Source of the DNA: a virus
Length of the DNA: 64,000 nt
Reading direction: 5' to 3' (one strand)
Virus genome (UHGV): UHGV-0144373
Position 1 is the first letter of the stretch. Each line of letters begins with the position of its first letter. Of the stretch, positions 2,126 through 27,667 are shown in pieces. The position numbers and the translations under genes are program-made. The notes beneath the pieces were generated by a model. It was not told the DNA's origin, searched no databases, and saw only the letters and a program-made list of their open reading frames with translations.

Positions 2126-3166
2126 ATGGAGAAGTACACATTAACAAAACTTCCCGATTCAGTTACACACGTCTTTATTGACTCTGACAGTATTGCCTAT
2201 AAAGGTGCTTGTGTAGTTGAGAAAGCAAAATATAAATACGTCAATAAACTCACAGCAGAAGAATCTGAGCCATTTGATAATGCGAAAGATGCTGCAAGAT
2301 GGTTAGCAGACCAGAGAATCCTTGTGGAAGAGCTTGGCCTGACATTTGATGAAGATGAATGGGAAAGACAGACTTGGAAAGAAGCTAAGAGTGAAAAAGA
2401 AGCTATCATGGCTACTCAACAGGTTCTTCAGGAATGGCTTAAGGTTGTTGGTAAAGAGAGAACTTGGGTAGGTTATTTAACAGAGAAAGGTGTGCATAAG
2501 CATAAAGACATTAAAGGTCTTGAGCACCAATATCAAGGTAACCGCAAAGATGCTGTCACGCCAACACACTTAGTTGCTTGTCGTGAATATCTTCTGTCAA
2601 GACCAGAGTTCAAACTGATTCTTGATGGATTTGAAGCTGACTCCATCGTTATTGCTAAAGCTGAAAAGATGGGTAAAAAAGCTGCCTTAATGAGTATTGA
2701 CAAAGACCTTCGACAAGCTGAAGGGACTTATTGTATTGATATGACCTATGAAAAGTCACCTTTGATTTTCATTGCTGACAACAACGTAGGTGAAATTTGG
2801 GATTGCCCAATAAAATCGACACCAAAAGCTAAGAAGACAGTTGGGGTAGGTTTTAAATTTCTTTGTTACCAAGCTGTGGCTGGTGATAATGCTGATAATT
2901 ATTTTGGTTTAAAGGGTGTTGGTAAGGTTACTATAATGAAAGCCCTTGAAGGTAAAACCACTTACAAAGAGTGTCTTGATGCAATTTATGAGCTTTATGC
3001 TAAGAAAGAGTCATACACTTATGTCTCGTGGGATGGTCAAACAATTACCAGAACACCTTTAGAGTTAATGCAGCAACACTTTTTCTTAGCTTATCAGGAA
3101 AGAAACAAGAAAGACGATTTTACTTTTAAGAAATATAATTGGGAGCCGTGTATGAATGAAGATTAA
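2126..3166 (+). CDS. flap endonuclease / 5'-3' exonuclease (FEN-like)
   Basis: 346 aa; motifs VFIDSDSIAYK, GFEADSIVIAKAEKMG, SIDKDLRQ and H3TH-like GLKGVGKVT match the 5'-3' exonuclease family. Confidence 0.7.
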   Translation: MEKYTLTKLPDSVTHVFIDSDSIAYKGACVVEKAKYKYVNKLTAEESEPFDNAKDAARWLADQRILVEELGLTFDEDEWERQTWKEAKSEKEAIMATQQVLQEWLKVVGKERTWVGYLTEKGVHKHKDIKGLEHQYQGNRKDAVTPTHLVACREYLLSRPEFKLILDGFEADSIVIAKAEKMGKKAALMSIDKDLRQAEGTYCIDMTYEKSPLIFIADNNVGEIWDCPIKSTPKAKKTVGVGFKFLCYQAVAGDNADNYFGLKGVGKVTIMKALEGKTTYKECLDAIYELYAKKESYTYVSWDGQTITRTPLELMQQHFFLAYQERNKKDDFTFKKYNWEPCMNED

Positions 3167-3653
3167 AGGATTTGGCAATTGCCCTACCTATGGTCATTGG
3201 GTATCTTTATGTGGGGAAGTTGACCCCACTAAACATTTTGGCTTTGTCTATTTAGTACACTGTAAGAAAACCGGACAATATTATATAGGAAAAAAACAGT
3301 TTAACAGTGTTACTAAAAGAAAAGTTGCTGGGAAGACCCGTAAGAAGATAGTCACTAAGGAAAGTGATTGGATGACTTACGAGACTTCTTCTGAGTATAT
3401 CAAAAAAGATATTGAAAGCTTTGGAAAAGAGTTTTTTGACTTTTACATTATCCAAACCTACTACACAAAAGGTGGCCTAGTCTATGGTGAAGCAAACCTT
3501 CAACATAAATTCGATGTAATGACAAAAAGAATTGACTCGAAGCTCAGACTCTTCTACAATGCCAATATTGCAGCAATTAAGTTTATTACTAAAGAAACTT
3601 ATGAAGATGCTGAAAAAAGAATCAATAAGGTAATGAAAGCAAATTGTGCTTGA
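3156..3653 (+). CDS. GIY-YIG-like nuclease domain protein (possible homing endonuclease)
   Basis: 165 aa; FGFVYLVHCKKTGQYYIGKK fits the GIY...YIG motif pattern; overlaps the FEN gene 3' end. Confidence 0.4.
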   Translation: MKIKGFGNCPTYGHWVSLCGEVDPTKHFGFVYLVHCKKTGQYYIGKKQFNSVTKRKVAGKTRKKIVTKESDWMTYETSSEYIKKDIESFGKEFFDFYIIQTYYTKGGLVYGEANLQHKFDVMTKRIDSKLRLFYNANIAAIKFITKETYEDAEKRINKVMKANCA

Positions 3654-9394: not shown

Positions 9395-9402
9395 AATGAA
9401 AT

Positions 9403-9423
9403 GGTCTCTTCGGAGACCTTTTT
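9403..9423 (+). terminator. rho-independent terminator
   Basis: GGTCTC-TTCG-GAGACC followed by TTTTT. Confidence 0.55.
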
Positions 9424-9442
9424 AGCATGTAAAGGGGCAATA

Positions 9443-11587
9443 ATGAACAAAGTACAGATTATTAAAAAGAATGGCTCACTCGAAGAACCTGATATCAAAA
9501 AAGTTTTAGTAGCAGTCACAAAGTCAGCTAACAGAGTTGGTTATAAAGAGCTTCCACCAGATGTTACTCAAGCTCTTGAGTCAGCATTTATGAGGATTCT
9601 GGTAAAGTCCACTAAACAGAATAATTTGCTAATTTCGGTAAATGATATTCACAGTATTGTTGAGGGTGCTTTGGCAGAAGTCAATCACGAAATCTATGAG
9701 TCTTACTCAACATATAGAAATTACCGTAAAGAAGTTGCTCAAAATTGGGATGAACTCTACCAGAAGACCAGAGATACACTCTTCTTAGGTGACAGAGAGA
9801 ATGCTAACTTTGACAGCAGTTTAATTTCTACAAAAGGTTCAATTATTCGTGGTTATCTGACTAAAGAAATCTTTAAACAGTACCATTTAACACCAGAGGA
9901 ACTTGAAGCCATTGAAAAAGGGTTTATCTATATCCATGATTTAAGAGACCTAATTTTTGGTGGTATCAACTGTTGCCTGTTTGACATTGGTAAAGTCCTG
10001 AAAGGTGGCTTTGAAATGTCTGGCATCGAATATTGTGAACCGAAGTCTGTGCTGTCGGCCTTACAGGTTATTGGTGACGTAGTTCTTTCAGCAACTGCAC
10101 AGCAATTTGGTGGTTTTACTTTAGCAGAGATTGATAAGGTACTTGTGCCGTATGCTAAGAAGTCTCTACGCTATCATGCTGAGAAAGCAGCATCTTATGG
10201 TATTCCTAAAGAACATTACCACAATTATGTCATGGAGCAGCTACAGCTTGAATTAACTCAGGGTTTCCAGTCACTCGAAATGAAACTAAATACTGTACCT
10301 TGTAGCCGTGGTGATTTTGCATTTACAACTTTGACATTTGGATTACTTGACTCAGATATGTCTAATGAAGACAACCGACTGCAATACATGATTGCAAACA
10401 CCATTCTTGATGTTCGCATGAATGGACAAGGTAAGAGCAAGAAGCCTGTTGTATTCCCTAAACTGGTTTATATTCATGACCAGAAGAGACACGATGAGGA
10501 TATCTGTCAAGGCCAACTGTACAGCAAAGCTATTGAGTGTTGCTCTAAAGCGATGTATCCAGATTTCTTAAGTGTATCTGGTCATGGTGCTGTAGCAGAA
10601 GCTTTTGAGCGTTCTGGCAAGGTAATTTCACCGATGGGTTGCAGAGCTTTCTTATCCCCATATCTTAACGAGAATGGAGAAGAGTTCTACGTTGGTCGTG
10701 CTAATATTGGTGCTGTATCTTTGAACTTACCAATGATTTACCAGTATTCTAAAGAGAATGGTTTAGATTTCTGGAAAGAGCTTGATAAGTACCTAGAAAT
10801 GATTCGTAGCTTCCATAAGAAACGTTACGAAATGATTGCCAATATGCCAGCAAGTTCTAACCCTCTTGCATTCACACAAGGTGGTCTGTATAAAGGGACT
10901 AAGAAGCCTACTGACAAGGTTGGTTGGGATATTGTGAAGTCCTTCACAGCTTCTTTTGGGGTTACTGCTCTTGATGAGTTATCTGTTCTTGCTGAAGGTA
11001 AACGACTTCATGAAGTTGGAAGTTCTAGTTTTGCATACGATGTTCTGGCATACATTAACATGAAAACTGAAGAGTTTAAGAATGAAGATGGCTTCCTGTA
11101 TGCAGTATATGGCACTCCAGCAGAGTCATTGTGTGGAACTCAGCTAAAACAGTTCAGAGATATGTTTGGTGTTATTAAAGGCGTTTCTGACAAGGAATAC
11201 TTTACAAACAGTTTCCATATGAATGTTGCAGCAAACATCTCACCATTTGAGAAGCAGGACTTAGAAGAGCCATTCTTCCATATCTGTAGAGGTGGCAGAA
11301 TCCAGTATGTAAGGGTAGCTAACCCAGAAAACTTACCAGCACTTAAAAGTTGTATTACCAGAGGGATGTTGAAGGGTTTTTATCAGGGACTTAACTTTGA
11401 CTTAGCAATCTGTGAACATTGTGGTAACAGACCAAAGGCTGATGTGGAAGAATGTGAGGTTTGTCATTCACACGATATCTCTGTGATTAACAGGGTGTGC
11501 GGGTACTTGTCATTCACAAAAATTAAAGGTCAGTCTCGAATGAATGACGCTAAGATGGCAGAAATTAAGGATAGAGTTTCTATGTAA
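9443..11587 (+). CDS. nrdD: anaerobic ribonucleoside-triphosphate reductase (class III)
   Basis: ATG9443 after AAAGGGG; ATP-cone N-terminus; C-terminal Zn-ribbon CEHCGN...CEVCHSHD and glycyl-radical motif NRVCGYL. Confidence 0.85.
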   Translation: MNKVQIIKKNGSLEEPDIKKVLVAVTKSANRVGYKELPPDVTQALESAFMRILVKSTKQNNLLISVNDIHSIVEGALAEVNHEIYESYSTYRNYRKEVAQNWDELYQKTRDTLFLGDRENANFDSSLISTKGSIIRGYLTKEIFKQYHLTPEELEAIEKGFIYIHDLRDLIFGGINCCLFDIGKVLKGGFEMSGIEYCEPKSVLSALQVIGDVVLSATAQQFGGFTLAEIDKVLVPYAKKSLRYHAEKAASYGIPKEHYHNYVMEQLQLELTQGFQSLEMKLNTVPCSRGDFAFTTLTFGLLDSDMSNEDNRLQYMIANTILDVRMNGQGKSKKPVVFPKLVYIHDQKRHDEDICQGQLYSKAIECCSKAMYPDFLSVSGHGAVAEAFERSGKVISPMGCRAFLSPYLNENGEEFYVGRANIGAVSLNLPMIYQYSKENGLDFWKELDKYLEMIRSFHKKRYEMIANMPASSNPLAFTQGGLYKGTKKPTDKVGWDIVKSFTASFGVTALDELSVLAEGKRLHEVGSSSFAYDVLAYINMKTEEFKNEDGFLYAVYGTPAESLCGTQLKQFRDMFGVIKGVSDKEYFTNSFHMNVAANISPFEKQDLEEPFFHICRGGRIQYVRVANPENLPALKSCITRGMLKGFYQGLNFDLAICEHCGNRPKADVEECEVCHSHDISVINRVCGYLSFTKIKGQSRMNDAKMAEIKDRVSM

Positions 11588-14087: not shown

Positions 14088-14118
14088 AAGGGAACTGTAA
14101 AGGTTCCCTTTTTATTTT
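14088..14118 (+). terminator. rho-independent terminator
   Basis: AAGGGAAC-loop-GGTTCCCTT then TTTTATTTT. Confidence 0.5.
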
Positions 14119-14127
14119 GGAGATGAT

Positions 14128-14643
14128 ATGTATCTGTCAAACCTGAAACGTTCTGCTGCAATGTCAGTGTTAAGACTCAGCTTTGAGGAACGTCAAGAGT
14201 TCATTGACTCCCACCAATACGACCCTTCCAACTCGAATCACATGATACTCTGGAATCGTGAGAGTACTCGTGAAAGAGCACTATTCCGCTATTACCCACA
14301 CTACACTATAGATAACCTGTATGAATTGTTTGTTGTGAAGAACACCATTACAGTGCTCAATCAACTTTGCAGATACACAGGTAGTCAATCCTTCACATTA
14401 GGCCACCACAAACCTGTTACAAAGGGTGGTGAGCATCACTGTGCAAACTGGTTTATCCAGACTAAACTTGATAACCAGAAGCAGGGAGATAACCTTCTAA
14501 GCACACCTAAGATGACCTACGAAGAGCAAGAGAAATATATCAAAAATAATATGCCAGATGTGCTTGACAACAACTATACAGATTTGGCAATATCTCTCCT
14601 GTTGAAGTTCGAGACAGTTTATAGGGCAACTTACAATGGCTAA
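14128..14643 (+). CDS. HNH endonuclease-like protein
   Basis: GHHKPVTKGGEHHCANWFIQTKLDNQKQGD fits the HNH pattern (HH...GG...N...N..K). Confidence 0.5.
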   Translation: MYLSNLKRSAAMSVLRLSFEERQEFIDSHQYDPSNSNHMILWNRESTRERALFRYYPHYTIDNLYELFVVKNTITVLNQLCRYTGSQSFTLGHHKPVTKGGEHHCANWFIQTKLDNQKQGDNLLSTPKMTYEEQEKYIKNNMPDVLDNNYTDLAISLLLKFETVYRATYNG

Positions 14644-14914
14644 AGAGAAGTGGGAGATTTTACCATTAGTCAGTGAAGGCGGTAATGGTTGCGAAATGTA
14701 CATGATACGTGGTCATGTTCCAGAACCAATTGCACTTGAGATGGTAAACAACTTTACAGATGGCTCTTACAAAGACTTAGGGGAGCCAACTATAAAGCAG
14801 CAATGGGTAAAGCCTGTACCAGACAGCACAGGTGGCTGTAGTGTACTTTATCACGTTGTAGACCCTGCAAAATGCAAATCTGCAATGGCAGTAACAAACG
14901 TAACTTTTGATTGA
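14636..14914 (+). CDS. hypothetical protein
   Basis: ORF overlapping the HNH gene end. Confidence 0.4.
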   Translation: MAKEKWEILPLVSEGGNGCEMYMIRGHVPEPIALEMVNNFTDGSYKDLGEPTIKQQWVKPVPDSTGGCSVLYHVVDPAKCKSAMAVTNVTFD

Positions 14915-14923
14915 GAGAAAATT

Positions 14924-15379
14924 ATGATTTTTTGCAGCTTCCAAAAAAGAATTATTGAGATTCTATACAATAAGTTTGGGACAGATAACACATTTGACTC
15001 AAATGAAGCTATTGAAGCCCTACAAGAAGGAAGTGATTATATCAAAAAACAGCCAATAGCAAACATCAGGTACTACTTGACTCAGATGAGAAAGTGGGGT
15101 GTGCTCATCGTGGTAGGACAGATTAAGCAACAAGGGAGGATGCTCATCAACCAATTAAACAGAGGTTTTATTGAGAAGCACATTCAGCTAGACTATTTAC
15201 TTAAAGAGCCACGAAACCAACGTGAAGAGCAGCAAAAAGACTTAAGTGGTGGTGTAGGTGTGTCTCCAGACATAAAATTCTTTATTGGTGAGTTGATGTT
15301 TGATACACTCCAAGATGCTGTTGAACACTGCAAAAAGTATATTATCAAAGTAAAACGTGCAAAAATTATTTGGGAGTAA
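14924..15379 (+). CDS. paralog family protein, subtype A (copy 1)
   Basis: Starts MIFCSFQKRIIEILYNKFGTDNTFDSNEAIE; ends AVEHCKKYIIKVKRAKIIWE; homologous to 15801-16265. Confidence 0.5.
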   Translation: MIFCSFQKRIIEILYNKFGTDNTFDSNEAIEALQEGSDYIKKQPIANIRYYLTQMRKWGVLIVVGQIKQQGRMLINQLNRGFIEKHIQLDYLLKEPRNQREEQQKDLSGGVGVSPDIKFFIGELMFDTLQDAVEHCKKYIIKVKRAKIIWE

Positions 15380-15383
15380 TAAC

Positions 15384-15779
15384 ATGTTTGAGCTTCTGAA
15401 GGTTCTGTATATAAATTTTGGCTATGATAAAACATTTTCTGGCTCACAACTAACTAAGGTTTTTAATAAATATCTACCACATGCTTCAATCAGGGATAAA
15501 GCTAATTGGTCTCACAGATTACGTAAAAGTGGGTATATTAGCGTTGTTGGGGCGACAGGCTTTAATAATGAGTATCTTATGAGAATCAATGAAAGCAAAG
15601 CTAAAAATGTGCTTTTAAATTGTAATGACTATCAACAAAAGGATGAAGAGGTCAGTGTAGGTGAAGTAGGGTACTTCATAGGTGACATACACTTTACCAG
15701 TATGGAGGCAGCAGTTGAGCATTGTAAGAGAACGGTTATCCAAACAAAAAGAAAGCGTATTGTTTGGGAAGAAGTTTAA
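15384..15779 (+). CDS. paralog family protein, subtype B (copy 1)
   Basis: ATG15384 (MFELLKVLYINFGYDKTF); shared C-terminal EHCK...K(R/K)xK(I/V)(I/V)WE motif; homologous to 16270-16650. Confidence 0.5.
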   Translation: MFELLKVLYINFGYDKTFSGSQLTKVFNKYLPHASIRDKANWSHRLRKSGYISVVGATGFNNEYLMRINESKAKNVLLNCNDYQQKDEEVSVGEVGYFIGDIHFTSMEAAVEHCKRTVIQTKRKRIVWEEV

Positions 15780-15800
15780 ACATTTGATTAGGAATACACT

Positions 15801-16265
15801 ATGATTTTTTGCAATTTACAGAAGCACGTAATAGAGATTTTATACAAAACCTTCGGGACAGAAAACACTTTTGACTCTAACGAAGCAATTGACACATTAA
15901 GAGAGAATAGCCTTTTTATACGAGGCCAGTCAATCAGTAATACCCGTGGGTATCTGACAATGTTAAGACAGTCTGGTGTACTGCTGACTGTAGGGCAGGT
16001 AAAAAGCAAAGGTAGACTAAGTATTAATCAATTAAATCGAGCCTTTATGGAGAAGCACATACAACTGTCAAGGATGCTAGATAATACGTGTGAAGAGTTG
16101 GGGAGTCCACAAAAAGCGAGTTCATCTGATGTTAAAGATGTGGATGCACAACCTGACGTAAGATACTTTATTGCTGATGTTATGTTTAAAACACTCGATG
16201 AAGCTATTGAGCACTGCAAAAAGCATCTTATTAAAGTTAAACATGCAAAAGTTATTTGGGAGTGA
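15801..16265 (+). CDS. paralog family protein, subtype A (copy 2)
   Basis: MIFCNLQKHVIEILYKTFGTENTFDSNEAID...EHCKKHLIKVKHAKVIWE. Confidence 0.5.
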   Translation: MIFCNLQKHVIEILYKTFGTENTFDSNEAIDTLRENSLFIRGQSISNTRGYLTMLRQSGVLLTVGQVKSKGRLSINQLNRAFMEKHIQLSRMLDNTCEELGSPQKASSSDVKDVDAQPDVRYFIADVMFKTLDEAIEHCKKHLIKVKHAKVIWE

Positions 16266-16269
16266 TGCT

Positions 16270-16650
16270 ATGATTGAACTGTTAAAAGTCCTATATAATA
16301 AGTTTGGTTATGATAAAACTTTTACTTGTTCACAGATACGTAGTATCCATGATAAGGAATTTCCAAATGTATCCAAGACAAACAAGTCAACTCGGTTCAA
16401 TCGTCTTCGCCAGAGGGGTTACATTAAAATAGTTGGATACAAGAATAACTCTTTCGAGTATGTAATGCAGATTAATAGAGAAGTGTCAAGTAAAATACTT
16501 GAAGAGCCAACAGCCGAAGAACAAAAGATACAAGACGGTGAAGTTCGCTTCTTTGTGGAGAAGGAAAGTTTTGGGTCAATAGATGAAGCTATCGAATATT
16601 GTAAAAAGAACATTATTCAGGTAAAGCGTAGAAAGGTTATTTGGGAATAA
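16270..16650 (+). CDS. paralog family protein, subtype B (copy 2)
   Basis: ATG16270 (MIELLKVLYNKFGYDKTF...EYCKKNIIQVKRRKVIWE). Confidence 0.5.
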   Translation: MIELLKVLYNKFGYDKTFTCSQIRSIHDKEFPNVSKTNKSTRFNRLRQRGYIKIVGYKNNSFEYVMQINREVSSKILEEPTAEEQKIQDGEVRFFVEKESFGSIDEAIEYCKKNIIQVKRRKVIWE

Positions 16651-16667
16651 AGAGAGAGAGAGAGAGA
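16651..16667 (+). repeat. (AG)8 dinucleotide repeat in the 5' leader of the prs-like gene
   Basis: AGAGAGAGAGAGAGAGA directly upstream of ATG16672. Confidence 0.9.
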
Positions 16668-16671
16668 AGCT

Positions 16672-17553
16672 ATGAAAACATCTATCCGTGTTACAGTTCA
16701 TTCACCGACTAAAGGGACTCACGAAGAAGAGTTTAACATTATCCAATTCCCTTCTGGTGAGATTGGTGGACACTTTTCACAAGAGCTTGTTGATTTTACT
16801 GCTTATGCAGCATCATCCATCAACAACGTGGTTATGATTGTAAAGGGTTATGACAAAGACACATTGTTTGCTGTTGCACTTGCTAAAGAAGCAATTGATG
16901 ATTTAGTTCCTCATGATTATGCTCTGAAGACTGTCATTTTTTACTACTTGCCAAATGCACGATATGACCGTCACATGTTTAAAGGCGACGCAGCAGCTTT
17001 AAAGGTTTTTGCTAAACAGATTAATGCAATGGGGTTTGGCGCAGTCTGTGCAGTTGACCCTCACAGCTATGTACCAGATAACCTGTTTAACTGCTTCCAG
17101 AGTATCCCTCAAAAGGAAATTGCAGTCCACTATGCAAATGACCCTCTGATTGATTACTTAGTAGCTCCAGATGCAGGTGCTTCTAAGAAGATTGCAGAGA
17201 CTGCTAAAGAGGTAGATAAACCATACATCACAATGTCTAAAGTACGCAACCTCAAGACTGGTGAAATCACTGGTATGCGAATCCTTGATGATGTTGATTT
17301 GACAGATAAAACTGTCATGATTCTGGATGATATTTGTGATGGAGGCCGAACCTTCATAGAAGCAGCTAAACACCTCCGTAAAGCAGGTGCAAAACGTGTG
17401 GAACTATATGTAACACATGGTATCTTCTCTAAAGGTGTTGAAAACTTACTTGACAATGGTATTGACCATATCTACACTACAAACTCTTTAGGCGAAGCTA
17501 AAGACCGTGGCTTAACACATTACGGCCAAGTTACTGTAGCAACCATTGATTGA
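16672..17553 (+). CDS. ribose-phosphate pyrophosphokinase-like protein (PRPP synthetase homolog; possible ADPR-PP synthetase)
   Basis: 293 aa; PRPP-binding loop MILDDICDGGRTF and VAPDAGASKK; Prs family by motif. Confidence 0.75.
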   Translation: MKTSIRVTVHSPTKGTHEEEFNIIQFPSGEIGGHFSQELVDFTAYAASSINNVVMIVKGYDKDTLFAVALAKEAIDDLVPHDYALKTVIFYYLPNARYDRHMFKGDAAALKVFAKQINAMGFGAVCAVDPHSYVPDNLFNCFQSIPQKEIAVHYANDPLIDYLVAPDAGASKKIAETAKEVDKPYITMSKVRNLKTGEITGMRILDDVDLTDKTVMILDDICDGGRTFIEAAKHLRKAGAKRVELYVTHGIFSKGVENLLDNGIDHIYTTNSLGEAKDRGLTHYGQVTVATID

Positions 17554-17563
17554 AACTTTATAG

Positions 17564-17584
17564 GGGCTTAAAAGCCCCATTTTG
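17564..17584 (+). terminator. hairpin (terminator/processing-like)
   Basis: GGGGCTT-AAA-AGCCCC followed by ATTTTG. Confidence 0.4.
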
Positions 17585-17598
17585 AGAGAGATTAAAAG

Positions 17599-19380
17599 AT
17601 GACTAAATCACTTTATGCAGTACCAGCAGGTCTTAATGCAGATGCTTACAAGGCATCACATATATATCAGTATCCAGATGCTACACAATATCTTATGTTG
17701 AACCTGACACCACGTAGTGATAAATGGTTTAACAGTCCTTTAGCAATTGACGGTGTAGTGGCTTTTGGTATTCAACGTTTTGTTAAAGATTACTTGATAG
17801 ACCACTGGAATGCCACTTTCTTTGAACGTGATAAAAAAGAAGCAATTGACGAAATCTTAGAAGTCATGAATGGTGTTCTGGGTAAAGATGCTATCGGTCG
17901 AGAGCATTGGGAAGCACTTCACGACTTAGGCTATCTACCAGTTGAAGTATACGCTGTAGAAGAAGGTGCAGTTGTTCCTATGCGTGTCCCAATGATTGTC
18001 TTCCAGAACACTGTTTCAGGCTTCCATTGGGTAGCAGGGTATCTGGAAGATGCTTTCTCTGCTGAGATTTGGAAGGCTTGCACTATTGCAACTATTGCAT
18101 TGCATTACAAACGCATCTGTAAGAAGTGGGCTGACCTTACTTGCGACAATGACTTACATTTACCCTATCAGTGCCATGACTTTGCTATGCGTGGTATGTC
18201 CGGCTTTACTGATGACGCATTTAACGCTGTAGGTCACTTAACCAGCTTTAAAGGAACTGATAGCTTCCCTGCTGTGTATACGGCTAAACGAATCTATGGA
18301 CAGTCCTACCCAATCTCTGATATTGGTAGCTCTGTACCAGCCACTGAACACTCTGTGATGTGTGCAAACATTGCTTGGGAAGGTGGTAATGAATTGATTG
18401 AAGATGAAAGACGTTTTAAAGGTGAGTTACAAACCTTCCGTCGTTTCTTAACAGAAACTTACCCAACTGGTATTGCAAGTATTGTTTCAGACACTTATAA
18501 CTTCTGGAGAACTGTGTCAGAAATCTTACCAGCACTACGTAAAGAAATTATGGAACGTGACGGTAAACTGGTAATTCGCCCTGACTCTGGAGACCCTGTA
18601 CATATTGTCACAGGTTATAAAGCAATCCACTTAGAGTGTGCTAAAAAGGCTTATTATGAGCACCTAAGCAAGCTGGAAGCCAGTGACACAATGCTGAATG
18701 CTGTTCTGAACATGAAGCTTGAAAACATCAGCTATGGTATTGCTGGATGGCTACTGTCAGAAGGATACGAAATGGTTGTTGATAGAGAAGACTTTGAAGT
18801 TGCTGATACAGTGATGTTGAAAAATGCTTATATGGTTGGTTCTGCAAACGTTATAACACGTCCTGTGGCTGAGATTGATGGAGCTATTAAGACACTGTAC
18901 AACATCTTTGGAGGAACTATTAACTCTAAAGGGTTTAAGGTACTGGATGAGCATATCGGTCTTATCTATGGTGACTCTATCACACTGGAACGTGCAAACG
19001 AAATCCTGAAGCGTCTGTATGAAATGGGTTTTGCAAGCTCTAACGTAGTATTTGGTGTAGGCTCTTACACTTACCAGTACATGACTCGTGACACCTTTGC
19101 ATTTGCTGTCAAAGCAACTCTTGCAAGCATTGGTGGTAAAGAGATTATGCTTGCAAAAGACCCTAAAACAGATAGTGGTGTTAAGAAATCTGCTTTTGGC
19201 GGTGTAGCACCTATGTGGGATGGTGATAAGTTGAAAGCTGTAGATGGCTATGGATTCCAGAGCTTTGCAGATGCACTTGAACATCCAGCTTGTGCTTTAC
19301 GTTTAGTCTTTAGTGACTCTGAGCAGTACGGTTACACATCTCTTGGTGATATTCGAAATAATATTGACAAGCAGCTTTAA
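17599..19380 (+). CDS. nicotinamide phosphoribosyltransferase-like protein (Nampt/NadV homolog)
   Basis: 593 aa; GFTDDAFNAVGHL, GTDSFPAVY and SVPATEHSVMC segments recalled as Nampt-family-like (from memory); immediately downstream of the prs-like gene. Confidence 0.7.
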   Translation: MTKSLYAVPAGLNADAYKASHIYQYPDATQYLMLNLTPRSDKWFNSPLAIDGVVAFGIQRFVKDYLIDHWNATFFERDKKEAIDEILEVMNGVLGKDAIGREHWEALHDLGYLPVEVYAVEEGAVVPMRVPMIVFQNTVSGFHWVAGYLEDAFSAEIWKACTIATIALHYKRICKKWADLTCDNDLHLPYQCHDFAMRGMSGFTDDAFNAVGHLTSFKGTDSFPAVYTAKRIYGQSYPISDIGSSVPATEHSVMCANIAWEGGNELIEDERRFKGELQTFRRFLTETYPTGIASIVSDTYNFWRTVSEILPALRKEIMERDGKLVIRPDSGDPVHIVTGYKAIHLECAKKAYYEHLSKLEASDTMLNAVLNMKLENISYGIAGWLLSEGYEMVVDREDFEVADTVMLKNAYMVGSANVITRPVAEIDGAIKTLYNIFGGTINSKGFKVLDEHIGLIYGDSITLERANEILKRLYEMGFASSNVVFGVGSYTYQYMTRDTFAFAVKATLASIGGKEIMLAKDPKTDSGVKKSAFGGVAPMWDGDKLKAVDGYGFQSFADALEHPACALRLVFSDSEQYGYTSLGDIRNNIDKQL

Positions 19381-19394
19381 AAGTATATGATAAG

Positions 19395-19417
19395 AGGCTC
19401 CTACGGGAGCCTTTTTA
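19395..19417 (+). terminator. rho-independent terminator
   Basis: AGGCTCC-TACG-GGAGCCT then TTTTT. Confidence 0.55.
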
Positions 19418-19955: not shown

Positions 19956-22322
19956 ATGCGCATGGTAAACGACCACGCAGAAGTGCTTAAGAGTTCAACT
20001 TCTTTGGAGACATCTCAAGCACAGATTACAATGACACCTGAAATGTTCAGCCTTTTGAGTTCTGGTGTATACACATTTAAAGAGCGAGCAGTGATTCGTG
20101 AACTGTCATGTAATGCAGTGGATGCTCAGAAAGAAGCTGGAAAAGAGAACATCCCGTTCCATGTGCATTTACCTACTCGATTTGAGCCTTACTTTGAAGT
20201 CCGTGACTTTGGAACTGGATTGACTCATGATAAAGTTATGAGTTTGTACCTAAACTACGGAGCTTCTACGAAGAATGACTCTAATGATTACATTGGTGCA
20301 ATGGGTATCGGCTCAAAATCTCCATTTGCAATTGCTCAGTCATTCACAGTATCTAGCTATGTTGACGGTGTTGTTAATAAGTACTCTGTTTACCTTGAGA
20401 ATGGTATCCCTCAAGTAACTAAGCTTACTACTAACCAAACAAATGAACCTAATGGTTTAGCTGTACGTGTGGCAGTTGCTGACCACCGTATTTCAAAGTT
20501 CTTTGAAGAGGCTGGTCACGTATACTCATACTTTGCTGTAAAACCAGAAAGTAACATTGTATATGATGACGTGTTAGCAGATATGAACGTCATTGCCCGT
20601 GAAGAAGGTGTTTATGATGCTATGATTCATAAGCAAAGCTGGCGTTCTAGTGGCAACAGGACAGATTTTAATGTGGTAATGGGTAATATTGCCTACCCAG
20701 TTAATATGGAAGCATTACTTGGCGATGATTTCTTCAAAGTCTTGCCAGAATTTTTCCGTAGGAGCGTAGACCTTGTAAACATTTACATGCCTATTGGTTC
20801 AGTGGCTATTGCAGCTTCTCGTGAAGCATTGCAGATGAATGATACGACAAAAAATGTTATTATCGAGGCCACCAAAAAGATAACTGGAGCAATTACAAAG
20901 GATGTTATCAAGAAAGTTAATAGTCAACCTACACTCATGGATGCTGCACAGGCTTATGCTGAGTTACGTTTGAACTCACGAGAGATGTTTAATGCTGTGT
21001 GTCCAAAGCTGGAGTGGGGTGGTGTTAAGCTTGATTCTCTGGAAGAAGAATTACTAAACATTCGTCGTGGGATTATCTACGCAGAAGACGGCTCAGTCAT
21101 TTATGAACGTGACGGCAAAGGTAATATTAAGGTTGATAGGAACGGGAACAATATCCCTAAAGTAGATTATCTTTATAATCCAGTTGCTTATGTCAAGTTC
21201 AACTCTTTAGAGAGTAAGATTCGTGCAACAGCACTTTCCTACACTCAAGAGGCAAGTATGTTCAATATCTTTGGTGCAATGCGTAAAAGCCAAATTGAAC
21301 AGTTTTTGTTCGTGATTAATGACCGTCGCAATAAAAATGGCACTGAGAAGACTGTAGGCCGCAATCAGATTCTGCGTGGTGCATGTCGAGATTACGCCAA
21401 TGAGTCAAGTCTGTTTCACAGATACAATGGTATTGTGTTTGTATTCTCGACTGAAAAAGAGTTAGATGATTTAATCAACCTGCATAAACTTGATAAAAGC
21501 TTGTTAAAGATTGTGAAAATGTCTGATAAGGAACACCATTACCAGCGTAAAGAAGCTGTCAGGGGTGTTGTAAAACTCTGGAAAGCTGTTCCAGCAGAAG
21601 GTGTAGCCTCATACACAGAGGTGTCAGAAGACTTTGATACAATTGAAGAACCTCAGCTTTACATTAAGGCAGTTGGTGATACAGTTGATGGCGAATGTTT
21701 TTGCTCATCTCCAGAAGATGTAGCTAAGTCAGTTGCTAATGTTACAGGGAAGACAGTCTATGTTTTCCGAAAAGCAAATTGGAAAAAGATACCAGAAGAC
21801 TGGATTGAAGTAGATGAGAAGCTCTTGAACGACAGTTTAACTGATGTTCACTGGATTAATCATAACAGGTATATGACACGCATCTGTATGCGTGGTGTCC
21901 TTAACCTTACAAGCTGTTGGATTATTACCAGAAACTTTACGTTCAATAACAGGAAGATTTCTGATGGTTATTGCTATTCACGGGACACAAACAAAACTAT
22001 CTTCCTAGAAGGTAATGAAGATGCTGTTGAGGCAATGTTCGGTAAAATCCAATACGTTGCTGCACAATTTGCATACACTTACACTATTAGTGTGTTGCAA
22101 GATTTGAAAAGGTGTCTTGACAATGATACAAAGCTTTATAAGAAAATTAAGAAAGCTGGTGACCGTATGTTTATTAAGGTGACAAACTACTTCTCAAAAA
22201 GAAAACAAGAAAACTTCTTGCTTTCTCATTTAGATTGGAATAAAGTGTCACCCATTGAAGTGAGTAAGTTCTTGGGCTTTGATGTGAAGTGTGTTCCAGA
22301 AGGGACTACAATTTACGATTAA
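19956..22322 (+). CDS. rIIA: rIIA-like protein with N-terminal GHKL (Bergerat-fold) ATPase domain
   Basis: 788 aa; N-box ELSCNAVDA, G1 box VRDFGTGL, G2 box GAMGIGSKS in canonical order; rIIA assignment from architecture, size and following gene. Confidence 0.5.
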   Translation: MRMVNDHAEVLKSSTSLETSQAQITMTPEMFSLLSSGVYTFKERAVIRELSCNAVDAQKEAGKENIPFHVHLPTRFEPYFEVRDFGTGLTHDKVMSLYLNYGASTKNDSNDYIGAMGIGSKSPFAIAQSFTVSSYVDGVVNKYSVYLENGIPQVTKLTTNQTNEPNGLAVRVAVADHRISKFFEEAGHVYSYFAVKPESNIVYDDVLADMNVIAREEGVYDAMIHKQSWRSSGNRTDFNVVMGNIAYPVNMEALLGDDFFKVLPEFFRRSVDLVNIYMPIGSVAIAASREALQMNDTTKNVIIEATKKITGAITKDVIKKVNSQPTLMDAAQAYAELRLNSREMFNAVCPKLEWGGVKLDSLEEELLNIRRGIIYAEDGSVIYERDGKGNIKVDRNGNNIPKVDYLYNPVAYVKFNSLESKIRATALSYTQEASMFNIFGAMRKSQIEQFLFVINDRRNKNGTEKTVGRNQILRGACRDYANESSLFHRYNGIVFVFSTEKELDDLINLHKLDKSLLKIVKMSDKEHHYQRKEAVRGVVKLWKAVPAEGVASYTEVSEDFDTIEEPQLYIKAVGDTVDGECFCSSPEDVAKSVANVTGKTVYVFRKANWKKIPEDWIEVDEKLLNDSLTDVHWINHNRYMTRICMRGVLNLTSCWIITRNFTFNNRKISDGYCYSRDTNKTIFLEGNEDAVEAMFGKIQYVAAQFAYTYTISVLQDLKRCLDNDTKLYKKIKKAGDRMFIKVTNYFSKRKQENFLLSHLDWNKVSPIEVSKFLGFDVKCVPEGTTIYD

Positions 22323-22401: not shown

Positions 22402-23511
22402 ATGACTACTAAAACTAAAGCACAGATTGACGCAGAAATTTACAAACTGGTTAAAGAAGGTAAGCTTACTAAAACAGCTATTGCACAGAAGTTCAATACT
22501 TCAACCCGTTCAGTTGGTCGTGCTGTAGAGCGTCATGAAGCAACCTTAAAAGGTAAGAAAAAGGTAGCTTCTAAACCAGCTACGAAGACTTTGAAGCAAG
22601 TTGCTAAGTCAGTTAAAAAGAAAGCTGGAAAACCAGTTGAAAAGGTTGTTAAAGAGGTTGTACAAAAGGCTCCGGTAAATAAACTACACGAAGCTATGCA
22701 GAATGGCAACCAGATTGAGTACATGATTACTGGTGACTCTGTTATCATGACTTTCGGTGCAGATTCTGAAATAGTTGAATCTACCCATCCGAACTACAAA
22801 GAAATCGTGATGGCTGTTGTATCCGGTGAGTTTAAGAAAGCCTTTGAACTGATGAACATTCGTAAGTCTATCGAAAACTTCACTCAGGGTGCTATCACAA
22901 TCAAGGGTGACAAACTATTCTACGGTGCTGTTGAGATGCGTTCTACTCTGGTTGACCGTATTCTTCACATGATGAAGACTGGAGATAAAGGTTTTGAACG
23001 CCTTGTAATGTTCTTTGAAAAACTGATGGAAAACCCATCTAAAGATTCTGTAGAACAACTTTGGGGCTTCGTATCCCACCTTGATGTTGAAATTGATGAA
23101 GAAGGTTACATCATTGGTTGGAAGAAAGTCTCTACTCGTGAAGGTAAGCTGGTTGACTCCCACACCTACAGAGTACCTAATGATTTAGGTAACATTGTAG
23201 AAATGCCACGTTGGATGGTTGATAATAACCGTAACGTGACTTGCTCACAAGGTCTTCACGTTGGTGCTTGGGATTATGTTCGTTGCTTCTCAGGTGATAC
23301 AATTCTGAAGGTTCGTGTCCATCCACGAGATGTTGTATCTGTTCCAACTGATTACAACGATATGAAGATGCGTTCATCACGTTATGAAGTTGCAGCAATC
23401 GTTGACAATCAACGTAAAGTGCTGAAAGCATGGGATGGCAAGACTGAAGCTTTGCATGTCATCGTTGGTACTGCTGGCGAACTTATTTCTCAGCGTAAAC
23501 GTGAAATCTAA
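22402..23511 (+). CDS. rIIB: rIIB-like protein (tentative)
   Basis: 369 aa, directly downstream of the rIIA-like gene; Lys-rich N-terminal region; assignment by synteny only. Confidence 0.35.
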   Translation: MTTKTKAQIDAEIYKLVKEGKLTKTAIAQKFNTSTRSVGRAVERHEATLKGKKKVASKPATKTLKQVAKSVKKKAGKPVEKVVKEVVQKAPVNKLHEAMQNGNQIEYMITGDSVIMTFGADSEIVESTHPNYKEIVMAVVSGEFKKAFELMNIRKSIENFTQGAITIKGDKLFYGAVEMRSTLVDRILHMMKTGDKGFERLVMFFEKLMENPSKDSVEQLWGFVSHLDVEIDEEGYIIGWKKVSTREGKLVDSHTYRVPNDLGNIVEMPRWMVDNNRNVTCSQGLHVGAWDYVRCFSGDTILKVRVHPRDVVSVPTDYNDMKMRSSRYEVAAIVDNQRKVLKAWDGKTEALHVIVGTAGELISQRKREI

Positions 23512-26881: not shown

Positions 26882-27667
26882 ATGGGTATTGTAAAAATAA
26901 TCAATGGTGATATCTTTGCCGCATTTGATAAAGGTAAGTTTGACATCATCGGTCACGGTTGCAACTGTATGAATTTAATGGGTGCAGGTATTGCAGCAAC
27001 TATTTCTAAGCGTTATCCAAAAGTGTATGATACTGACACAGAAGTTTACCTGTTTGCAGGCGGCATCCGTCACAAACCCTGTGAAAATTTACTGGGTAAT
27101 TTCTCCGTAGCACGTTTAAAACAAGGCCGTATAGCTAACCTTTACACCCAACTTCATACTGGTAAAGATGCCCGATACAGTGCTTTAGAGTCATCTTTGA
27201 AACAGCTTAACAGATACTGTGAAGTTAACCAGTTGAAGAAAGTTGGTCTACCTATGATTGGTGCAGGTATTGGTGGACTCGACCCTCAAGCCGCCACAGT
27301 TATCATTAATCAGGTGATGAAAAGTGTAGATGTTTATCTGTATGTCTACGAAGGAGAGATGTACCACAAGTTACTCTCAGGTTGGAAGAACTACTGTGAA
27401 CCAGAATACTTTGCAGGTGTAGTAACGTTCACAGATAATACAGTTACCCTCTTCAGACGAAGAAAAGGTAAGATACATCAAAGTAACCCTCCGGTTGAAA
27501 AGATGTCTCTAAGTAACGCTCTAGTTACCCACCTGTCGAAGAGCAATCACAGAATTGCTGTGACATTTGGTAGTGATGCCGATGCTTACATTTATGCAAG
27601 AACTGATGAGGATATCGAGGCAATCTTCTCTTCACCAGAAGTTACCTTCTTAGACGCAAAGAACTAA
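26882..27667 (+). CDS. macrodomain protein (TARG1/OARD1-like), possible ADP-ribose hydrolase
   Basis: GDIFAAFDKGKFDIIGHGCNCMNLMGAGIA and VGLPMIGAGIGGLDP match the macrodomain signature pattern; about 110-aa C-terminal extension. Confidence 0.55.
   Translation: MGIVKIINGDIFAAFDKGKFDIIGHGCNCMNLMGAGIAATISKRYPKVYDTDTEVYLFAGGIRHKPCENLLGNFSVARLKQGRIANLYTQLHTGKDARYSALESSLKQLNRYCEVNQLKKVGLPMIGAGIGGLDPQAATVIINQVMKSVDVYLYVYEGEMYHKLLSGWKNYCEPEYFAGVVTFTDNTVTLFRRRKGKIHQSNPPVEKMSLSNALVTHLSKSNHRIAVTFGSDADAYIYARTDEDIEAIFSSPEVTFLDAKN

Follow-up and report, generated by a model that had tools for sequence, protein, structure and literature searches.

An Adps-Namat gene pair in a Felixounavirus genome, orthologous to the NARP1 operon of phage Bas63

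Two neighboring genes in the analyzed stretch of a Felixounavirus genome (hereafter the window, 64,000 nucleotides) encode homologs of PRPP synthetase (Adps) and nicotinamide phosphoribosyltransferase (Namat), and very probably (probability roughly 0.93) represent the Felixounavirus NARP1 operon, which rebuilds NAD+ from ADP-ribose (ADPR) and nicotinamide. An earlier note on this DNA had put forward the same reading, and it is upheld by collinear orthologs of the same length in Escherichia phage Bas63 (g79/g80), by the clamp of Namat and by the catalytic and PP-loop residues of Adps. The presence and adjacency of the genes, their orthology to Bas63 g79/g80 and the conservation of catalytic and specificity residues were observed directly; the chemistry and the anti-defence phenotype are drawn from published work on orthologs and homologs, and we infer from it that this allele would be active. 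The locus is real and was rightly read, and since it is orthologous to the genes from which NARP1 first became known it is not new and brings no new biology.

Both genes lie on the + strand, as do the features given below with coordinates of their own, and both reading frames begin and end exactly where they had been placed before: adps at 16672-17553 (293 aa) directly precedes namat at 17599-19380 (593 aa), with a spacer of 45 nt, and each gives profile matches far beyond chance. The adjacency is kept, with the fixed spacer, in 259 phage records, and the pair is found just downstream of a cluster of nrdA, nrdB, nrdD and nrdG. An (AG)8 purine run (16651-16666), read directly from the sequence between the start codon of adps and the TAA (16648-16650) that ends the preceding ORF, is a probable ribosome-binding region, a role that is inferred only. 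The spacer carries a GC-rich hairpin, GGGGCU-UAAA-AGCCCC (17563-17578), followed by AUUUU and then by a GAGAGAG run resembling a ribosome-binding site; the hairpin stem is identical in Bas63, the predicted RNA fold has an energy of -13.8 kcal/mol over 61 nt (z = -3.1), and the element may act as a partial terminator or in mRNA stability. A terminator-like hairpin (19392-19415), located 12 nt past the namat stop codon and formed by a 10-bp stem, 5 pairs of which are GC, ahead of a T run, is identical in sequence in Bas63 and probably marks the end of the transcription unit.

The putative ADP-ribose pyrophosphokinase encoded by adps matches PHROG 619 (“ribose-phosphate pyrophosphokinase”, E = 2e-97) and the Pfam families Pribosyltran and Pribosyl_synth, and aligns without gaps to Bas63 gp79, which has an equal length (78% amino acid identity). 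Comparison with reference enzymes places it nearer to the enzymatically verified Adps of Vibrio phage ICP1 (37% identity, 118 bits) than to E. coli Prs (28%, 59 bits). The protein also fails all NCBIfam equivalog models for Prs, with 40-104 bits against cut-offs of 296-536 (e.g. 103.9 vs. 296), and only marginally passes the cut-off of the broad subfamily model TIGR01251 “ribP_PPkin” (118.9 vs. 113). The PRPS-like protein thus appears to fall within the phage Adps clade and not with cellular Prs, an assignment based on pairwise scores and NCBIfam cut-offs.

The residues of the protein point in the same direction. Residues R87, H121, D161, K185, D212, D213 and D216 of ICP1 Adps correspond to R97, H131, D167, K190, D219, D220 and D223 here, and a hairpin K[VI]R[ND][LV]xTG[ED]I, a PP loop DDI[CS]DG, the motif THGIFSKG and a shortened C-terminus are common to the Adps proteins of the window, ICP1, Brizo and Bas63 and distinguish them from E. 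coli Prs. The PP loop reads CDGGRT in the window, CDGAAS in ICP1 (C215-S220) and IDTGGT in Prs. A search of this ORF for the Prs-type loop DxxDTGGT and the C-terminal regulatory helices found neither, with DDICDGGRT in place of the former and a truncated C-terminus, and these features together with the failed equivalog cut-offs led us to reject a canonical ribose-phosphate diphosphokinase. The adenine-contacting F18' and F92 of ICP1 align to T16 and M102, with F21 and F103 lying 1-5 positions away; at such divergence the N-terminal residues cannot be aligned reliably, and conservation of the acceptor site is less certain than that of the catalytic set. The N-terminal part also varies between close relatives: identity to Bas63 is 55-75% over the first ~180 aa and ~97% in the C-terminal half, nucleotide identity climbs from 59% to 95% along the gene, and the N-terminal allele of the window is commoner than that of Bas63 among database Felixounaviruses.

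Namat, the Nampt-like protein and presumed nicotinamide ADP-ribose transferase, matches PHROG 448 (“nicotinamide phosphoribosyl transferase”, E = 1.8e-201) and the Pfam families NAPRTase (E = 5.6e-35) and NAMPT_N, and is 97% identical to Bas63 gp80 (577/593, no gaps). Its best sequence match in the PDB is the Namat of Bacillus phage SpbetaL1 (9W5W/9W5X, E = 5e-128, 431 bits), and the AlphaFold2 model (pLDDT 93.2) has 9w5x as its top Foldseek hit with a TM-score of 0.95 over the target, so that SpbetaL1 Namat ranks above H. ducreyi NadV (HdNadV) and mammalian NAMPT by both sequence and fold. The catalytic core of SpbetaL1 Namat (D13, Y15, F189, R192, D215, the catalytic His, R306 and D308) is matched throughout, D15, Y17, F195, R198, D221, H251, R327 and D329 of the window protein being invariant columns in an alignment of 49 sequences, and further ligand contacts have equivalents in G458-D459 and T496-R497-D498.

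Two elements of Namat are held to select the substrate. The selectivity-clamp helix (SCH; aa 488-498, 19060-19092), GSYTYQYMTRD, fits the published adenine-clamp signature, whereas the corresponding segments of HdNadV (GAQTYQRNTRD) and Xanthomonas (Xcc) Nampt (GGALLQKVDRD), used as negative controls, fail the motif. The selectivity-clamp loop (SCL; aa 40-49, SDKWFNSPLA, 17716-17745) lies within the sequence TPRSDKWF, which is identical in Bas63 and includes the pair K42-W43. The SCL is expected to carry either Arg at its third position or Lys/Tyr followed by a stacking residue; where the third residue is Lys, as in Bas63, the fourth is reported to stack on the adenine, in a model and not a solved structure (PMC12774641), and the SCL of the window protein would accordingly appear to supply the adenine-stacking residue. 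The earlier note had held that sequence alone cannot distinguish NARP1 from ordinary salvage; that view is outdated, as the published signatures and orthology do separate them.

As had been remarked, Namat exceeds typical NadV by about 100 aa, with 593 aa compared to 482-496 aa for the solved Namat and Nampt chains. The excess consists of two insertions, one of ~15 aa that follows the catalytic His (aa ~257-272) and one of ~75-85 aa behind RPDSGDP (aa ~343-426), the latter forming an alpha/beta subdomain (aa ~342-427, 18622-18879) that is well folded in the model and common to Bas63. Neither SpbetaL1 Namat nor HdNadV nor mammalian NAMPT has the subdomain, and fold recognition on this ~80-aa insert found no recognizable fold.

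According to the proposed mechanism, Adps would convert ADPR and ATP to ADPR-PP, from which nicotinamide would displace pyrophosphate by the Nampt-type chemistry of Namat, so that NAD+ would form directly, without passing through NMN, and an NMN adenylyltransferase (NMNAT) would not be required. Deletion of g79-80 sensitizes Bas63 to SIR2-HerA and abolishes NAD+ recovery, and ADPR-PP was seen only for wild-type Bas63 in combination with the defence system (bioRxiv 10.1101/2024.02.11.579819). In an independent knockout screen, which likewise showed NARP1 to be required against Sir2-HerA, either single deletion caused a 1e4-1e6 drop in plating that was rescued by complementation, and both genes were dispensable on hosts without defence (PhageMaP preprint 10.1101/2024.10.10.617714). 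The Bas63 evidence is in vivo, and the biochemistry comes from the SpbetaL1, ICP1 and DyoEdafos homologs at roughly 33-37% identity. By extension, the phage would carry a working type of counter-defence against NAD+-depleting immunity, such as Sir2-HerA/Nezha, type I Thoeris, DSR, SEFIR, Kongming and SPARSA. The assignment is also of value for annotation, because Felix-O1-like therapeutic and diagnostic phages mostly still have these genes labelled Prs and NadV; points of secondary interest are the inserted domain of Namat, the two N-terminal alleles of Adps and an unlinked Macro-domain phosphatase.

The absence of an NMNAT from the window, also noted earlier, was confirmed by Pfam scans of its 70 ORFs of at least 92 aa, among which no member of the CTP_transf_like (PF01467), Nudix, PnuC or NadR families was found. 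This search covered 64 kb of the ~87-kb genome; for the remainder, no NMNAT is annotated among the Bas63 features bas63_0053-0161 (38,000-87,100 of that record). Two other routes of NAD+ reconstitution were rejected on the same inventory: NARP2 (Nampt with NMNAT/Nudix), as PF01467 and Nudix are missing from the 70 ORFs while the Nampt-like protein has an adenine clamp and Adps as its partner, and NARP3 (PnuC with a NadR-like protein), neither family being found in the window.

It is possible, though on balance we consider it unlikely, that a protein encoded away from the operon assists NARP1 in trans, in the manner of NARP1-AP. The Macro-domain “phosphatase” encoded at 26882-27667, a candidate accessory gene, would turn ADPR-1''-phosphate, the product of the aRES/RES NAD+ phosphorylase, into ADPR, thereby feeding NARP1 and covering aRES. 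The ORF matches Pfam Macro (E = 7.7e-8) and PHROG 335 “phosphatase” (E = 5e-112) and is 93% identical to its Bas63 ortholog, bas63_0095. PHROG 335 also holds the phosphatase from inside the Adps-phosphatase-Namat operon of Thalassavirus Brizo, to which the window protein is 30% identical (BLASTP, E = 4e-16); the two proteins have their nearest PDB matches, OARD1/TARG1, in common, and phage Gary, in which Adpp was shown to turn ADPR-1P into ADPR, belongs to the same genus as Brizo. Macro genes are present in other NARP1 lineages as well (PAK_P1-like, psageK4-like and Erwinia Ounavirinae-like phages), and the published survey was confined to two genes from NARP1, so that distal copies were not assessed. 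Against this, 7.5 kb and about 14 genes separate it from the operon, 2856 phage records, including those of T4-like phages, contain members of this family (T4 Tk.4 type), Poa1p is matched only marginally (E~0.01 over 40 aa), and the protein has an extra C-terminal region of ~100 aa that is absent in Adpp. A NARP1-AP within the operon itself was rejected, as the genes within two positions, which are PHROG 29478, PHROG 4262 and a 58-aa ORF, include no Macro gene. Somewhat more doubtful still is a broader proposal, namely that Felixounaviruses run an unlinked NARP1-AP in which the Macro protein converts ADPR-1''-phosphate, and perhaps other modified ADPR, to ADPR, and that, separately, the ~80-aa insert of Ounavirinae-type Namat by the ribose-binding RPDSGDP loop adds a function that the solved SpbetaL1 enzyme does not have, for instance in docking of Adps or in regulation. 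If true, an unlinked NARP1-AP would make NAD+ reconstitution effective against RES-type defences as well, and a survey based on operon proximity would have missed it.

Ordinary salvage, in which a phage Prs would supply PRPP, NadV/Nampt would form NMN and host NadR or PncC-dependent routes would finish NAD+, is what the database names suggest: the Pfam, NCBIfam and PHROG matches are all named for Prs and NadV, and the 259 related phage records are, with few exceptions, annotated likewise. The marginal pass of TIGR01251 fits such an enzyme, and Namat retains PRPP-to-NMN activity in vitro at about half the level of human Nampt, which may leave room for some classical salvage flux. Nevertheless, we regard this explanation as very improbable. 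Bas63 overcame Sir2-HerA even in a host without pncC and nadR, so the NMN route is not needed there, and SpbetaL1 Adps converted ADPR to ADPR-PP but showed no measurable product formation in the control reaction for canonical Prs (bioRxiv 10.1101/2024.02.11.579819). Moreover, the window Namat has an adenine clamp that canonical Nampts do not have, and Adps-type motifs stand in place of those of Prs in a protein that misses the Prs equivalog models widely. More remote again is the idea, prompted by the nrd genes just upstream, that the Prs-like enzyme raises PRPP for nucleotide supply and that its Nampt-like neighbor is incidental, given that 97% of Adps-clade genes have a Namat neighbor (bioRxiv 10.1101/2024.02.11.579819), that pair and spacer are conserved together across the 259 records, that either knockout gives the same defence-specific phenotype, and that restriction of the phenotype to hosts with NAD+-depleting defences and a lack of PRPP formation in vitro have already been reported for homologs.

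As a NARP1 operon, the locus is closest to bas63_0079/0080 of Bas63 (JohannRWettstein, MZ501086), a phage of the same genus that agrees in gene order, in the lengths of the two genes (882 and 1782 nt), in the layout of the 45-nt spacer with its hairpin, in the terminator and in the flanking genes, and whose Namat (97% identity) includes the inserted subdomain and both clamp elements. It differs from Bas63 in a 1.75-kb insertion of four ORFs immediately upstream of adps and in the ~180-aa N-terminal allele of Adps. The SpbetaL1 NARP1 characterized by Osterman et al. has the same two-enzyme logic, catalytic core and Namat fold (TM 0.95) at about 37-38% identity; its Namat is shorter (491 aa), lacking the ~80-aa subdomain and the ~15-aa insert after the His, its SCH (GSFTYQYNTRD) differs at two positions, and its SCL stacks by Arg40 instead of the Lys-Trp pair. 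ICP1 Adps, known from structures and kinetics (PMC13586617), shares with the window protein the DDICDG PP loop and the TG[ED]I hairpin as well as the catalytic Lys (K185/K190), the His and the triad of Asp residues, and is likewise truncated at the C-terminus, but has 33-37% identity and stacking residues, Phe18 and Phe92, that are not aligned to aromatics in the window; loss of allosteric regulation has been reported for the ICP1 enzyme.

The NARP1-AP of Thalassavirus Gary/Brizo has homologous Adps and Namat proteins, and its phosphatase has the PHROG 335 homolog described above, which unlike the operon-embedded version is distant from the operon and 100 aa longer. NARP2 of Vibrio phage KVP40, with a bifunctional NMNAT/Nudix, and NARP3 of Bas30 serve the same end, replenishing NAD+ in the course of infection. 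A Nampt-family enzyme takes part in NARP2 too, whereas the one found here shows the clamp of Namat and is encoded next to Adps. Finally, E. coli Prs (b1207) and the NadV/Nampt enzymes (H. ducreyi NadV 9KE8, Xanthomonas, human NAMPT) have the same folds and the same pyrophosphoryl- and phosphoribosyl-transfer chemistry, but identity is only 23-28% to cellular Prs and 24-34% to Nampt, the substrate-selecting elements differ, and the C-terminal region of Prs is absent from the window protein.

The AT-rich phage DNA of the window (GC about 0.39) holds two adjoining ORFs on the + strand, the Prs-like adps at 16672-17553 (882 nt, 293 aa) and the Nampt-like namat at 17599-19380 (1782 nt, 593 aa), separated by 45 nt. 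In profile searches the adps product matched Pfam Pribosyltran and Pribosyl_synth and PHROG 619 ('ribose-phosphate pyrophosphokinase', E=2e-97); among NCBIfam models it scored 118.9 with TIGR01251, marginally over the cut-off of 113, and far under the cut-offs of all Prs equivalogs. The namat product matched Pfam NAPRTase and NAMPT_N, PHROG 448 (E=1.8e-201) and NF006629. Given these ORF positions and profile matches, the gene pair and the two homologies described in the earlier note are real and far beyond chance. We consider the pair, with a probability of about 0.93, to be a Felixounavirus operon for NARP1, the Adps plus Namat pathway that rebuilds NAD+ from ADP-ribose (ADPR) and nicotinamide via ADPR-pyrophosphate (ADPR-PP). 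This reading, already proposed in the earlier note, is supported by orthology to genes 79 and 80 of phage Bas63 (JohannRWettstein, MZ501086), the Namat clamp motif and the Adps catalytic residues.

By megablast the locus belongs to Felixounavirus, Felix-O1-like myoviruses with Escherichia, Salmonella and Shigella hosts; it has matches in 259 phage records, of which 221 match across 80% or more of the gene pair, and a top identity of 96%. In almost all of these records the two genes are labelled Prs and NadV. At 94% nucleotide identity the Felixounavirus locus also turns up in MG065664.1, MG065668.1 and MG065639.1, records named 'Campylobacter phage A132/A126'. Wrong labels or mixed assemblies seem a better explanation for these, and for single entries under Staphylococcus and Listeria, than a real departure in host range. 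In Bas63, bas63_0079 and bas63_0080 measure 882 and 1782 nt with a 45-nt spacer, exactly as in the window, and BLASTP alignments of the products are gap-free, with 230/293 (78%) identical residues for the Prs-like and 577/593 (97%) for the Nampt-like protein. The flanks are likewise orthologous, gp77 being 98% identical and the 3' sequence near-identical. Within adps, nucleotide identity to Bas63 is 59% at the 5' end and increases to about 95% from about 17270 on, placing a mosaic boundary within 16672-17270. By tblastn, database Felixounaviruses fall into two Adps allele groups (about 92-98% and about 75-78% identity to the window protein), the window type being the commoner in the genus; despite this split, Namat is about 97% identical throughout.

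The structure of Adps from Vibrio phage ICP1 identified Arg87, His121, Asp161, Lys185 (essential), Asp212, Asp213 and Asp216, and showed that the PP loop is remodelled and the C-terminal helices of Prs are lost (PMC13586617). When the window Adps is aligned with its Bas63, ICP1 and Brizo counterparts and E. coli Prs, these residues map to its R97, H131, D167, K190, D219, D220 and D223. All four phage proteins have K[VI]R[ND][LV]xTG[ED]I, DDI[CS]DG, THGIFSKG and a short C-terminus in common, whereas E. coli Prs has none of these features. The window Adps matches ICP1 Adps at 118 bits (37% identity) and E. coli Prs at 59 bits (28%). The adenine-stacking Phe18 and Phe92 of ICP1 align to T16 and M102, F21 and F103 being merely nearby.

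The top PDB sequence matches of the Nampt-like protein were 9W5W/9W5X (E=5e-128), which are SPbetaL1 Namat (PMC12774641), followed by H. ducreyi NadV, Xanthomonas Nampt and mammalian NAMPT. A selectivity clamp in Namat recognises the adenine of ADPR-PP (PMC12774641). The clamp helix of the window protein reads GSYTYQYMTRD and its clamp loop TPRSDKWF, a Lys followed by a stacking residue, as given for Bas63 (PMC12774641). The motif discriminates Namat, since the negative controls, canonical HdNadV (GAQTYQRNTRD) and Xcc Nampt (GGALLQKVDRD), read differently at this site. The residues that correspond to the ligand contacts of SPbetaL1 show no variation across an alignment of 49 sequences. For an AlphaFold2 model (pLDDT 93.2, pTM 0.91), the best superposition is with SPbetaL1 Namat, at a TM of 0.95 over the target. 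The closest insert-less relatives (P0067, P0073, P0083, P0101 and others; about 495 aa, 46-48% identity, clamp helix GS[YF]TYQYNTRD) are encoded by contigs of several megabases from Klebsiella, Cronobacter, Kosakonia and Phytobacter, in line with the NARP1 modules already reported from bacteria.

The adps-namat spacer contains a conserved GC hairpin (17563-17578, + strand; -13.8 kcal/mol, z=-3.1), followed by a purine-rich RBS. Terminator-like hairpins at 14088-14110 and, strongly, at 19392-19415, 3' of the namat stop codon, suggest that one transcription unit runs from about 14128 to 19380. Promoter-like matches did not exceed chance; a near-consensus sigma-70-like TTGACA-16-TATGAT (11/12 matches; within 19364-19415), identical in Bas63, overlaps the last namat codons and abuts the terminator hairpin. 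Relative to Bas63, the window has a 1.75-kb insertion (14915-16660) exactly between the stop codon of the gp78 homologue and the adps RBS. It comprises four tandem paralogues in A-B-A-B order (14924-15379, about 15384-15779, 15801-16265 and 16243-16650), all matching PHROG 29478 (unknown function) and ending in a conserved ...EA[VI]EHCKK..I.VKR.K[IV]IWE tail; among the 25 best matches listed, only about 11 records extend over the insertion. In many relatives (phiWec177, L008:2391-2882; VpaE1, ESCO50, Mushroom, VSe11 and further phages) a free-standing gene of about 490 nt for an HNH homing endonuclease separates adps from namat, where the window (17554-17598) and Bas63 show nothing but the 45-nt spacer. 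In ST11, a homing endonuclease interrupts the annotated Namat. The nrdD homologue (9401-11587) appears to lack the Bas63-type intron, since it is one uninterrupted 728-aa ORF whereas the Bas63 annotation joins nrdD from two pieces, with an intron that carries a homing endonuclease between them (bas63_0067/0068). A SegE-like GIY-YIG ORF among the early genes (3156-3653; PF19835, E=3.7e-28) is probably a free-standing homing endonuclease.

Bas63 gp77, termed GIY-YIG, is reported to counter retron Ec67 (PhageMaP preprint); the sole profile match of its 98% identical window orthologue (14128-14643), a weak one at E=1.8e-4, is instead to a PHROG of HNH endonucleases, and an HH...HH...N motif is present. 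Directly downstream of NARP1 lie rIIA and rIIB homologues (19956-22322 and 22402-23511). Since their Bas63 orthologues, g84 and g85, are reported to counter QatABCD defence (PhageMaP), the region from 14.1 to 23.5 kb looks like a putative counter-defence gene cluster.

Pfam scans argue against NARP2, NARP3 and a self-contained classical salvage route: in 70 ORFs that span the window, beyond which lie about 23 kb of the genome, they detected no NMNAT (PF01467), Nudix, PnuC or NadR family; the absence of NMNAT from the window noted earlier thus holds. The inventory of these ORFs includes ribonucleotide reductases, structural proteins, lysozyme and similar functions. Nor is NMNAT annotated among Bas63 features bas63_0053-0161 (record 38,000-87,100).

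RES-type defences make ADPR-1''-phosphate, which NARP1 cannot use, and some phages have NARP1-AP, an operon with an inserted Macro-domain phosphatase, Adpp, surveyed only within two genes of NARP1 (2026 preprint, 10.64898/2026.01.28.702374). The window encodes a 261-aa Macro-domain 'phosphatase' (26882-27667; Pfam Macro, E=7.7e-8) 7.5 kb downstream of the pair, 93% identical to its orthologue bas63_0095. PHROG 335 takes in both this protein and the phosphatase within the Adps-phosphatase-Namat operon of Thalassavirus Brizo, a congener of the characterised phage Gary; the window protein and the Brizo phosphatase share 30% identity (E=4e-16). Unlike in Thalassavirus NARP1-AP, the window gene is unlinked and its product has an extra C-terminal region of about 100 aa. 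However, members of this family are very common, occurring in 2856 phage records with T4-like phages among them, and Poa1p is matched only marginally. A functional link of this gene to NARP1 seems rather unlikely.

NARP1 was defined from genes 79-80 of Bas63, a BASEL phage and Felixounavirus (Osterman et al., bioRxiv 10.1101/2024.02.11.579819). Without them the phage is sensitive to SIR2-HerA and NAD+ recovery is lost; ADPR-PP was seen only with wild-type Bas63 plus the defence system, the counter-defence effect was kept in a host without pncC and nadR, and the enzymology used SPbetaL1 homologues (10.1101/2024.02.11.579819). In the independent genome-wide knockouts of PhageMaP, loss of g79 or g80 cut plating on Sir2-HerA 1e4-1e6, a defect rescued by complementation, with weaker effects against retron Ec86 and hhe (bioRxiv 10.1101/2024.10.10.617714). 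Since the window pair is orthologous to this founding NARP1 example, the system it represents is already known.
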